From Escherichia coli (lineage in GTDB: Bacteria > Pseudomonadota > Gammaproteobacteria > Enterobacterales > Enterobacteriaceae): DNA of 64,000 nt. The translations under genes and the position numbers were made by a program. Under the pieces are notes generated by a model. The model searched no databases. It was not told where the DNA came from and worked only from the letters and a program-made list of their open reading frames with translations. This document shows positions 27,529 through 39,945 of the stretch, one piece after another. The DNA lies in NCBI RefSeq assembly GCF_051903065.1, contig NZ_CP178438.1, one strand, 5' to 3'. Each line of letters begins with the position of its first letter. Position 1 is the stretch's first letter.

Positions 27529-28314
27529 ATGTTGCAGGTGACAAGCGATCAATGGCTTTCCTGGCTAAGTCTGTACTTCTGGCCGTTACTGCGCGTGCTG
27601 GCGCTCATTTCTACCGCGCCAATTCTGAGCGAACGCAGCGTGCCGAAGCGGGTAAAACTGGGGCTGGCAATGATGATCACGTTCGCCATTGCCCCATCAT
27701 TACCTGCCAACGATGTTCCTGTTTTTTCGTTCTTTGCTCTGTGGCTGGCCGTGCAGCAGATCCTGATCGGCATTGCGCTTGGTTTCACCATGCAATTTGC
27801 CTTTGCCGCTGTGCGAACCGCTGGCGAAATTATCGGTCTGCAAATGGGGCTGTCATTTGCGACATTTGTCGATCCGGCCAGCCATCTTAATATGCCCGTT
27901 TTAGCGCGTATCATGGATATGCTGGCGTTACTGCTGTTCCTGACATTTAACGGTCATTTATGGTTGATTTCACTGCTGGTCGATACCTTTCACACCCTGC
28001 CGATTGGTGGCGAACCGTTGAACAGCAATGCGTTTCTGGCACTCACCAAAGCAGGGAGTTTGATTTTCCTTAACGGGCTGATGCTGGCGTTACCGCTCAT
28101 TACTCTGCTGCTGACCCTGAATCTGGCATTAGGTTTACTGAATCGTATGGCCCCGCAATTATCCATTTTTGTTATTGGATTTCCATTAACTCTGACTGTC
28201 GGTATCTCTTTAATGGCGGCATTAATGCCGTTAATTGCGCCTTTTTGCGAACATTTATTCAGTGAGATGTTTAATTTGCTGGCTGATATTATTAGTGAAT
28301 TGCCATTAATATAA
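27529..28314 (+). CDS. fliR: Flagellar export apparatus protein FliR
   Basis: ORF trimmed to [13 protein letters not shown] (261 aa). Confidence 0.9.
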
Positions 28315-28339
28315 TTCCGTAACGTTTATCATGTTATCC

Positions 28340-28353
28340 TAAGGATTATCCGA
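28340..28353 (+). promoter_or_regulatory. Candidate RcsAB box (TAAGGATTATCCGA) upstream of rcsA
   Basis: Resembles the TaAGaatatTCctA consensus; lies about 250 nt upstream of the rcsA start. Confidence 0.3.
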
Positions 28354-28603
28354 AAAATAATACCTACGAACATCTTCCAGGATACTCCTGCGGCGAAATA
28401 TTTGTTTTAAGCTCACTCACATATCGCAACATTTACTTTACTTTAAGACAATTCCAGGCAAATTATACAACACTTTACGGGATAGTAAGTCCGCCTGAAA
28501 AATCGCGAGAGTGGCGCATTAGGTGACCCATGTTGTTCCGTTTAGTCATGATGAAATATTCAGGTAAGGGGAATTATCGTTACGCATTGAGTGAGGGTAT
28601 GCC

Positions 28604-29227
28604 ATGTCAACGATTATTATGGATTTATGTAGTTACACCCGACTAGGTTTAACCGGGTATCTGTTGAGTAGAGGGGTTAAAAAAAGAGAAATCAACGACA
28701 TTGAAACCGTTGATGACCTTGCCATAGCTTGTGATTCACAGCGCCCTTCAGTGGTGTTTATTAATGAGGACTGTTTCATCCATGATGCTTCTAACAGTCA
28801 GCGCATCAAGCACATCATTAATCAACATCCCAATACGTTATTTATCGTTTTTATGGCAATTGCCAATGTTCATTTTGATGAATATCTATTGGTCAGAAAA
28901 AATTTATTGATCAGTTCTAAATCGATTAAACCGGAATCTCTCGACGATATCCTTGGCGATATTCTGAAAAAAGAGACAACGATAACCTCTTTTTTAAATA
29001 TGCCGACGTTATCATTGAGCCGAACCGAATCGAGTATGTTGCGAATGTGGATGGCAGGTCAGGGAACCATTCAAATCTCTGACCAAATGAATATCAAAGC
29101 CAAGACCGTTTCATCGCATAAAGGTAATATTAAACGTAAGATCAAAACGCATAATAAACAGGTTATCTACCATGTCGTCCGACTGACGGATAATGTGACT
29201 AATGGTATTTTTGTCAACATGCGCTAA
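28604..29227 (+). CDS. rcsA: Capsule (colanic acid) synthesis co-activator RcsA, LuxR-type HTH
   Basis: 207-aa AT-rich ORF with C-terminal LuxR-type HTH. Confidence 0.9.
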
Positions 29228-29270
29228 CACATTCTGACTGGTGGTTTCCCACCAGTCAGGCTGAATAAGA

Positions 29271-29549
<279 letters not shown>

Positions 29550-29621
29550 CTATACTTAAGAGATGCCAGGCGGACTTAACGACTGGCGGCAACAACAGAG
29601 TAACGGTTGCGAGGAAAGATG

Positions 29622-29849
29622 ATGAAAACCGCAAAAGAGTACAGCGATACCACAAAACGTGAGGTCAGCGTCGATGTCGATGCCCTGCTGGCGGCGATCA
29701 ATGAAATTAGCGAAAGCGAAGTTCACCGCAGCCAGAACGATTCTGAACACGTTAGCGTCGATGGACGTGAATATCATACATGGCGTGAATTGGCGGATGC
29801 CTTCGAACTGGATATTCATGACTTCAGCGTCTCTGAAGTGAATCGTTGA
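29622..29849 (+). CDS. yodD: Stress-induced small protein YodD
   Basis: ORF trimmed to MKTAKEYSDTTK (75 aa). Confidence 0.7.
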   Translation: MKTAKEYSDTTKREVSVDVDALLAAINEISESEVHRSQNDSEHVSVDGREYHTWRELADAFELDIHDFSVSEVNR

Positions 29850-29862
29850 ATGCACAATAAAA

Positions 29863-29949
29863 AAATCCCGACCCTGAGGGGGTCGGGATGAAACTTGCTT
29901 AAGCAAGAAGCACTTAAAAAATTCGTTACACCAGGAAATCTGATGTGTT
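29863..29949 (-). ncRNA. dsrA: DsrA small regulatory RNA (Hfq-dependent; activates rpoS translation, represses hns)
   Basis: Minus-strand sequence AACACATCAGATTTCCTGGTGTAACGAATTTTTTAAGTGCTTCTTGCTTAAGCAAGTTTCATCCCGACCCCCTCAGGGTCGGGATTT matches recalled DsrA, including the terminator stem-loop. Confidence 0.85.
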
Positions 29950-30128
29950 CATCACCTTATCCGCAATTTTTTTCGCTGACAAGAAAATATTCGCCATATG
30001 AATGATTAACGCTACTTATGAATAGAAATGTGACGCACGTCACCCCTTGGTGGCTCTGGCGTCAGCGGGATCGCTCCCGAAAAAATCATCTTTGATTATT
30101 TGTGCTGTTTTGAGAATCATCCTGGTAA

Positions 30129-32653
<2,525 letters not shown>

Positions 32654-37826: not shown

Positions 37827-38210
37827 TTATTCATAGCGTCTGCTACGTGCGGGACGAGGTCGGGTGTACCAGGCAATGCTGCCTAACAATGCCCCGACCA
37901 GAGCCATAAATAAAAATCCGACCAGTGCCCCTAACCACTTTCCCGCGGTAGAGCCTAAATCGCTTTCAAATCCCGACACGGGGGCATCGGGGATCCGGCT
38001 CATCACCCAGATGTAACGCGCCATTGCCCAGACGAAATAGCCACACCATGTATAGAAAGCCCACAAAGCCAGTTTGCCGCCAGGGCTGCGAGAGAGTCTC
38101 TCTTCCATCTTTGTCGAACCGTATTCCATTTTGAGATAACCCGGAAAATTCAGACTTAGTACTATTATGTGATAAAAGTCACATTTTTCCACATTGAATG
38201 AGCCAGTCAA
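37827..38210 (-). CDS. yedR: Inner membrane protein YedR
   Basis: ORF with two transmembrane segments; the reference length is about 121 aa, so the start is uncertain. Confidence 0.65.
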   Translation of the reverse strand: MTGSFNVEKCDFYHIIVLSLNFPGYLKMEYGSTKMEERLSRSPGGKLALWAFYTWCGYFVWAMARYIWVMSRIPDAPVSGFESDLGSTAGKWLGALVGFLFMALVGALLGSIAWYTRPRPARSRRYE

Positions 38211-38349
38211 GACTCAATCATTTTTTGAACAAATAGATAAATTTTGCGCAACGGCAGTGAATACAGGAAAAATCGTTTTGAGCGATTTTATTTATCTTTG
38301 ATATCGGCTTTATTAATTCATTTAATCAATATATTAGCACTGAATACAA

Positions 38350-38447
38350 TTATACCTTTTTATTTTTCTGTGTCATGATGCCTCCGTTATTAGCCTTTTA
38401 TCGTCTTGTTTATATTTTTTGGGCCGGCATGATGCCGGCTTTTTTTA
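38350..38447 (+). ncRNA. rseX: Candidate small RNA (RseX-like) ending at a strong intrinsic terminator
   Basis: Hairpin GCCGGC-ATGAT-GCCGGC followed by TTTTTTTAT at 38423..38448 in the yedR-yedS intergenic region; the 5' end is not determined. RseX is recalled to map to this intergenic region in K-12. Confidence 0.3.
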
Positions 38448-38757
38448 TGCCTTCATTAATGTGCGCGTGATCACACCAGCCGTTTAGCGCAACAATCATT
38501 GATACCCCCTATCTTTCCGCTCAACTCATAACATATTGATATGCATTTATAATCTTCATGAATGCTTATATTTAGAATTCATAATTCTGAATTATATTAA
38601 ATAGATTGGAAACATTTTGAAATCTTTTAAATATATTTGTTACATGTAATCCTTAAAATAAAATGAACTTCATAGAATAGTATCCAAATGTGCTTTTTTT
38701 TGGATAACGGCACTTATTGATATATTCATGAAGATTATAATCACAAGGGAATACATA

Positions 38758-39945
38758 ATGAAAAGAAAAGTTCTGGCAATGCTGGTCCCGGCGTTATTAG
38801 TTGCTGGCGCAGCAAATGCGGCTGAAATTTATAATAAAGATGGCAATAAACTGGATTTGTACGGAAAAGTAGCGGGCCTGCACTACTTCTCTGATGATGC
38901 TGGCAGCGATGGCGACATGTCATATGCCCGTATCGGTTTCAAAGGTGAAACTCAGATCGCTGACCAATTCACTGGTTATGGTCAGTGGGAATTTAACATT
39001 GGCGCAAACGGTCCTGAAAGCGACAAGGGTAATACCGCAACGCGTCTGGCATTTGCAGGTTTCGGCTTTGGTCAGAATGGTACTTTCGACTATGGTCGTA
39101 ACTACGGTGTCGTATATGACGTAGAAGCATGGACCGATATGCTGCCAGAATTTGGTGGCGATACCTATGCTGGCGCTGACAACTTCATGAACGGTCGTGC
39201 TAATGGTGTTGCAACCTACCGTAACAATGGCTTCTTTGGTCAGGTCGATGGCCTGAACTTTGCTCTGCAATATCAGGGTAATAATGAAGATGATGGATTA
39301 TTCGGTCAGGAAGGTTCTGGTAACGGTAATGGCCGTAAGTTAGCTAAAGAGAACGGCGACGGCTTCGGTATGTCCACTTCCTATGACTTCGACTTCGGTT
39401 TAAGTCTGGGTGCTGCATATTCTAACTCTGACCGTACCGACAATCAGGTTCACAAAGGTACTCATAACACTCGTTATGGAGATCGCTTCGATGCAACTGC
39501 TGGCGGTGAAACAGCAGAAGCATGGACCGTTGGTGCTAAATACGACGCTAATAACGTTTACTTAGCAGCTATGTATGCTGAAACCCGTAACATGACTGGT
39601 TACGGTGATGCTGATGCCATCGCTAACAAAACCCAAAACTTTGAAGTTGTTGCTCAGTATCAGTTCGACTTTGGTCTGCGCCCGTCCATCGCTTACCTGC
39701 AATCTAAAGGTAAGGATTTAGGCGGTGTAAATAGTGATAACTTCGACAGCCAGGGTAATCATCACTACACCAACAAAGATCTGGTTAAATATGTTGATAT
39801 TGGTATGACCTACTACTTCAACAAAAACATGTCCACCTATGTTGATTACAAAATCAACCTGCTGGACAACGACGACGACTTCTACAAAGAAAACGGCATC
39901 GCTACCGATGATATCGTTGCTGTGGGCTTAGTCTACCAGTTCTAA
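38758..39945 (+). CDS. yedS: General-diffusion outer-membrane porin (OmpC/OmpF/PhoE family), intact
   Basis: Signal peptide [21 protein letters not shown] followed by [16 protein letters not shown] and C-terminal ...VGLVYQF; RBS AAGGGA upstream of the ATG at 38758. Confidence 0.8.

Follow-up and report, generated by a model that had tools for sequence, protein, structure and literature searches.

That H-NS silences the Escherichia coli capsule-regulator gene rcsA, and that the small RNA DsrA relieves this silencing, is established knowledge (Sledjeski and Gottesman 1995, in the summary given by PMC12152304). When DsrA is overproduced it counters H-NS and thereby activates rcsA transcription; its pairing with the hns mRNA, close to the start codon, promotes decay of that mRNA (PMC12152304, PMC3950696, PMC5651002). 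In PMC11879457, rcsA is described as highly expressed in a strain lacking hns and hha, which bears the silencing out again. The gene is also reported to be activated by RcsA-RcsB~P through an RcsAB box (PMC7913699, PMC5758874). In a literature-derived list of RcsAB sites the box of E. coli/Shigella rcsA is given as TAAGGATTATCCGA and that of Salmonella enterica rcsA as TAAGGTTTATCCGA (PMC4381331 Table S1), and the Salmonella site was placed at -264 from the start codon (PMC7913699). The RcsAB box at rcsA is thus no novelty in itself; it is already known. RcsAB binding, the need of the box for autoactivation, H-NS repression and the mechanism of DsrA are all taken here second-hand from the literature.

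The window, which is the whole 64-kb stretch of E. coli DNA that was analysed, contains the rcsA region with the gene order fliR-rcsA-dsrB-yodD-dsrA-yedP, in agreement with the annotation of K-12 MG1655. A 2.2-kb segment containing rcsA (window 28000..30200), used as query, has 100% identity with several E. coli chromosomes and is found at a coverage of at least 80% in 5214 of 5426 complete genomes. The rcsA coding sequence (28604..29227, plus strand) encodes 207 amino acids at 38.0% GC and is identified as an NCBIfam equivalog, its product scoring 404.5 bits with the equivalog HMM NF011940 against a curated cut-off of 162. The protein is identical to K-12 RcsA at 206 of 207 residues (99%); the sole substitution is L70H, at residue 70 (28811..28813). 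The upstream neighbour, fliR, ends at 28314. Downstream lies dsrB on the minus strand (29271..29459), followed by yodD and yedP; FliR, DsrB and YedP are equivalog matches as well. In the gap between rcsA and dsrB, which converge, an inverted repeat with perfect 11-bp arms around a loop of 4 nt is present at 29234..29259, probably a terminator shared by the two genes or a stabiliser hairpin. Neither strand of the repeat has a T-run. The locus is the canonical, well-studied E. coli rcsA capsule-regulator locus, and its central points are already known.

The RcsAB box TAAGGATTATCCGA is located at 28340..28353 on the plus strand. The earlier note had proposed a candidate RcsAB box at this place, and the proposal holds to the letter, since all 14 positions are those of the published E. 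coli rcsA site and both the position and the -264 offset are the same. The box extends from -264 to -251 relative to the ATG and from -132 to -119 relative to the transcription start (see below). It agrees with the consensus TaAGaatatTCcta, as quoted in PMC4325325, in 10 of 14 positions, and the five conserved ones (T1, A3, G4, T10 and C11) are all among them. The offset equals that of the Salmonella site (28604 - 264 = 28340). In K-12 the box occupies 2,023,704..2,023,717, and the window promoter is identical to that of K-12 across the box; over the 371-bp alignment, three bases differ between the two, none of them in the box. An alignment of the window to K-12 and Salmonella keeps the entire promoter, box included, in register. 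Alignment of the leader with the K-12 rcsA promoter, which the earlier note had named as the check on its proposal, therefore puts the motif on the published box and not beside it. The reading of 28340..28353 as the RcsAB box of a canonical, H-NS/DsrA-controlled rcsA locus is given a probability of about 0.93, with the binding itself known from secondary literature.

Motif statistics within the window carry little of this assignment. A weight matrix was built from 11 published boxes of other genes, rcsA being left out, and under this matrix TAAGGATTATCCGA scores 11 bits and ranks 4th of 127,974 positions. Chance alone would give about 6 matches of equal score in 64 kb and about 0.03 in a spacer of 289 bp. 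For the degenerate core T.AG.....TC..A the window has 21 occurrences where 25 are expected, and the core, the consensus (with up to 3 mismatches) and the matrix are all at or below the chance level in the 64-kb window. The other top matrix matches, at 16195..16208, 62347..62360 and 29266..29279 (TGAGAAAATTTTTA, TAAAAATATTCTAA and TAAGATTACTCTGC, respectively), are within chance expectation; the last of these is at the 3' end of dsrB, immediately beyond the putative terminator hairpin of rcsA. The lack of core enrichment and the half-dozen equal scores expected by chance are what would be seen if the motif were an accidental AT-rich near-palindrome in an AT-rich spacer, with no regulatory role. 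With the statistics at chance level, the box was validated through conservation and literature instead.

For this purpose rcsA loci from 80 species of Enterobacteriaceae were aligned, including Escherichia, Citrobacter, Salmonella, Enterobacter, Lelliottia, Kosakonia, Buttiauxella, Trabulsiella, Leclercia and Cedecea. The RcsAB box was found in all 80. Columns 1, 3, 4, 5, 10, 11 and 14 of the box are invariant, among them the five conserved consensus positions, and columns 2, 8 and 9 vary freely. Columns conserved to at least 90% number 10 of 14 in the box versus 6 of 40 in the flanks, which are only 67% conserved. The median score of the independent matrix at the box is 16.4 bits, versus a 99th percentile of 1.9 for all positions of the aligned region. 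The commonest version among the species is TGAGGATATTCCTA, a better match to the consensus than that of E. coli; at 11 bits, versus a species median of 16 bits, the E. coli box ranks among the weaker ones. In 79 of the 80 species the box and the -10 hexamer are 121 bp apart, while the leader varies in length from 53 to 218 nt; selection is therefore on the geometry of the box relative to the promoter. An accidental motif would not be expected to keep seven invariant columns in 80 of 80 species, the five essential positions included, between flanks conserved to 67% and at a fixed distance from the -10 hexamer, nor to coincide letter for letter with the site listed in the literature (PMC4381331). 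Conservation in the alignment effectively refutes an origin by chance, which is regarded as extremely improbable.

It was also considered that the box might be mainly a site for the RcsB homodimer, or be shared with other partners, and not be a specific RcsA-RcsB operator. According to PMC5758874, phosphorylated RcsB alone shifts a Salmonella rcsA probe (-275..-247) in EMSA, and the RcsB box TN(G/A)GAN4TC(T/C)NA has nearly the same pattern (PMC7913699). However, in PMC5758874 the binding of the rcsA probe by RcsB~P is described as weaker than that of flhDC, and the authors attribute the difference to the absence of RcsA. Position 5 of the box is G in all 80 species, where the RcsB homodimer box has A, and RcsA-dependent autoactivation has been reported (PMC7913699). 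A site devoted mainly to RcsB alone or to other partners is accordingly held to be very unlikely.

The transcription start of K-12 rcsA was mapped to version-2 coordinate 2021860, with an untranslated region of 132 nt (PMC3415461 supplementary file 2). The sequence flanking this start, TATCGCAAC...TTATACAACA, matches 28422..28472 of the window, so that the rcsA start is at 28472. The earlier note had spoken of a markedly AT-rich 290-bp leader. Its composition stands for the spacer between fliR and rcsA (289 bp, 39.8% GC), but the term leader does not, as the mapped start leaves only 132 nt of 5' untranslated leader (28472..28603, plus strand). This leader is only mildly AT-rich (45.5% GC); the AT-rich part of the spacer is the 157 bp of untranscribed DNA upstream of the start (35.0% GC), which carries the box. 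Folding gave no sign of a special structure in the leader (z = -0.46). Its first approximately 30 nt (ACTTTACGGGATAGTAAGTCCGCCTGAAAAA) and the last approximately 30 nt before the ATG are strongly conserved among the 80 species.

From the mapped start, the plus-strand hexamer TTTACT (28437..28442; 4/6 matches) is probably the -35 element and AATTAT (28461..28466) is probably the -10 element, the two being separated by an 18-bp spacer and the latter lying 6 nt upstream of the start. The -35 region is near-invariant across the 80 species, and GCAAATTATA around the -10 hexamer is conserved in nearly all of them. A generic sigma-70 scan returned no plus-strand promoter upstream of rcsA. The scan missed the proposed weak promoter because it matches only 8 of 12 positions, as is expected for an activator-dependent promoter. 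An alternative -10 hexamer, GATAGT (28481..28486), which would place a second box-like element (see below) at a class II activator position, was ruled out by the start at 28472. A minor plus-strand start, with three reads in the K-12 dataset of PMC3415461, lies at about 27921, inside fliR and 683 nt upstream of rcsA.

The rcsA promoter region is also a target of YdaT, a factor of the Rac prophage. The DNase I-protected site TGAATTGCCATTAATATA, whose sequence is given in PMC11879457, is found at 28296..28313 on the plus strand. This site, 27 bp upstream of the RcsAB box, belongs to the AT-rich tract, falls in the last codons of fliR and lies at -176..-159 from the start. In the same paper the YdaT site is described as being "~170 bp upstream of the TSS", which agrees with the start at 28472, and two RcsAB "boxes" are named, box1 and box2, of which box1 is under the YdaT footprint that includes 28296..28313. 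This part of the footprint does not overlap 28340..28353.

A second element resembling an Rcs box, TAAGACAATTCCAG, was recognised at 28444..28457 on the plus strand by its match to the consensus and its conservation. It lies at -28..-15, between the -35 and -10 hexamers, and agrees with the consensus in 10 of 14 positions, the five conserved ones all being present. In 79 of the 80 species the published box lies 104 bp, or about ten helical turns, upstream of it. Its conservation pattern, T(A/G)AGA..(A/T)TTC(C/T), mirrors the RcsB box, with variation at the positions that are variable in the consensus; in Buttiauxella the element reads TGAGAGCATTCTTA, a complete RcsB box, or TGAGAAGTTTCTTA. Its median matrix score across species, about 9 bits on both strands, is exceeded only by that of the known box. 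Full-text searches with the box and with the first 12 bases of the second element, TAAGACAATTCC, returned nothing relevant. It is possible, though on the present comparison of sequences rather doubtful, that TAAGACAATTCCAG is a second, undescribed Rcs operator in the rcsA core promoter, and it is offered as a lead and not as a finding. The whole core promoter is highly conserved, so the resemblance may be a coincidence; the element may be box2 of PMC11879457, or merely conserved core-promoter sequence. If RcsB or RcsAB binds TAAGACAATTCCAG, looping or the displacement of H-NS could let it act together with the distal box; it could also work the other way and limit the positive feedback by blocking the access of RNA polymerase.

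Other conserved stretches were noted in the spacer. The block AACATCTTCCAGGATACTCC (AACATCT.CCAGGATA) at 28369..28388 on the plus strand, at about -103..-84, was recognised in the alignment. It contains AGGATA, the letters of the main box's left half, and an overlapping 14-mer, CCAGGATACTCCTG (28377..28390), matches the consensus at 9 of 14 positions. In TAAGCTCACTCACA, at 28408..28421, the CTCACA part is conserved; in many genera the core pattern appears there again (TTAGC...CTCACA), exactly 68 bp downstream of the main box.

The coding sequence of rcsA and the spacer upstream of it are AT-rich relative to the flanking genes, as had been claimed from the sequence at the outset, with 38.0% and 39.8% GC versus 48-53% in the neighbours. 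The span 28315..29227 has 38.6% GC and is among the lowest 6.6% of 913-bp windows in the 64 kb. For comparison, the GC content is 48.6% in the window as a whole, 48.1% in fliR, 53.1% in fliP, 51.3% in dsrB and 51.6% in yedP. The GC content of rcsA is depressed at all three codon positions, with a GC3 of 41.8% versus 50-65% in the neighbours. A GC content still lower than that of rcsA, at 34-37%, is found in five other islands of the window (14131..15043, 16191..17103, 38091..39003, 46331..47243 and 62221..63133). Of these, the first two overlap a DUF5503 pseudogene with a frameshift and a leucine-rich-repeat protein next to an integrase fragment, and 38091..39003 is the drpB-ompC spacer.

The GC profile along the window, the further check that had been advised, shows an AT-rich tract of about 1.2 kb (about 28090..29300, 38.5% GC versus 48.6% for the window). 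The tract begins about 225 bp inside the 3' end of fliR and finishes just past the rcsA stop codon. The AT-richness looked for in an H-NS-silenced locus is found here, 28100..29230 having 38.5% GC versus 48.6% for the window, and the tract 28090..29300 is presumed to be an H-NS binding domain that H-NS would coat over its whole length. Scanning with the high-affinity H-NS motif TCGATAAATT gave three loose matches, all within the rcsA coding sequence, and no strong match in the rcsA promoter. Silencing by H-NS that is relieved by DsrA, as the earlier note had suggested on the basis of the composition, finds support in the literature (PMC12152304, PMC11879457).

The same composition could be read as a mere mark of horizontal acquisition with no relation to regulation, in keeping with the depression of GC at all three codon positions and with the other AT-rich islands of the window, which are obvious foreign or decayed genes. 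However, rcsA is syntenic and AT-rich in all 80 of the Enterobacteriaceae species sampled; in each of these 80 other species its GC content falls short of that of the flanks by 9 points or more (mean 40.3% versus 54.0%). Any acquisition would therefore be ancient, with a composition that has not ameliorated since; the low GC content of rcsA is an ancient trait. H-NS-dependent repression of rcsA is reported in the literature, and acquisition and H-NS regulation are compatible, because H-NS targets exactly such DNA. Composition without any regulatory relation is thus considered next to impossible, and control of the tract by H-NS is retained as the preferred reading.

The DsrA small RNA gene was identified at 29863..29949 on the minus strand as a full-length match to the Rfam covariance model RF00014 (model positions 1-85; 102.5 bits versus a gathering score of 60). 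The distance from the rcsA stop codon is 636 bp to the 3' end of DsrA and 722 bp to its 5' end, so that the figure of about 650 bp downstream that had been given beforehand is correct. DsrA is convergent with rcsA, and in 14 of the 16 other genera that were tested it occupies a corresponding place, downstream of rcsA and on the opposite strand. DsrA acts in trans, and its nearness to rcsA is therefore a matter of conserved synteny and not of a mechanism in cis. The RefSeq annotation of a strain that is 100% identical over this region has no dsrA feature at 29863..29949; in K-12 dsrA is annotated.

The components of the locus fit the following scheme. The AT-rich tract of about 1.2 kb, with rcsA within it, would be coated and silenced by H-NS, and DsrA would lower H-NS synthesis in trans by pairing with the hns mRNA, with the silencing relieved as a result. 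The RcsA-RcsB(~P) heterodimer would bind TAAGGATTATCCGA, the centre of which is 125 bp upstream of the start, and activate the weak rcsA promoter. Activation of rcsA by RcsA-RcsB would amount to positive autoregulation, a loop that H-NS and the degradation of RcsA by Lon would restrain.

Compared with the described systems, the locus is closest to that of K-12, whose RcsAB box (Wehland and Bernhard 2000; Ebel and Trempy 1999) has the identical 14 bp at the same -264 offset; nothing relevant in the K-12 rcsA promoter differs from the window. The Salmonella enterica box TAAGGTTTATCCGA is at the orthologous -264 position and differs by one base, A to T at position 6. The boxes of the capsule operons (wza, galF, amsG, tviA) and of flhDC follow the same 14-bp pattern, with T1, A3, G4, T10 and C11. 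They differ in what the bound site does: the rcsA box drives autoregulation from about -125, whereas the flhDC box mediates repression. The H-NS/DsrA anti-silencing system (Sledjeski and Gottesman 1995) was defined at this very locus; the AT-rich target and the downstream dsrA are both present, and no difference was found between that system and the locus described here. The rcsA-DsrA-H-NS circuit and its RcsAB box are a textbook case of capsule regulation, small-RNA anti-silencing and positive autoregulation. To this the present comparison makes modest additions, namely that it is the phasing of the box to the promoter, and not its distance from the ATG, that is conserved across 80 species, and that the E. 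coli box is a comparatively weak one. The one loose end with a certain value concerns the promoter spacer and the second, conserved element there that resembles the box.
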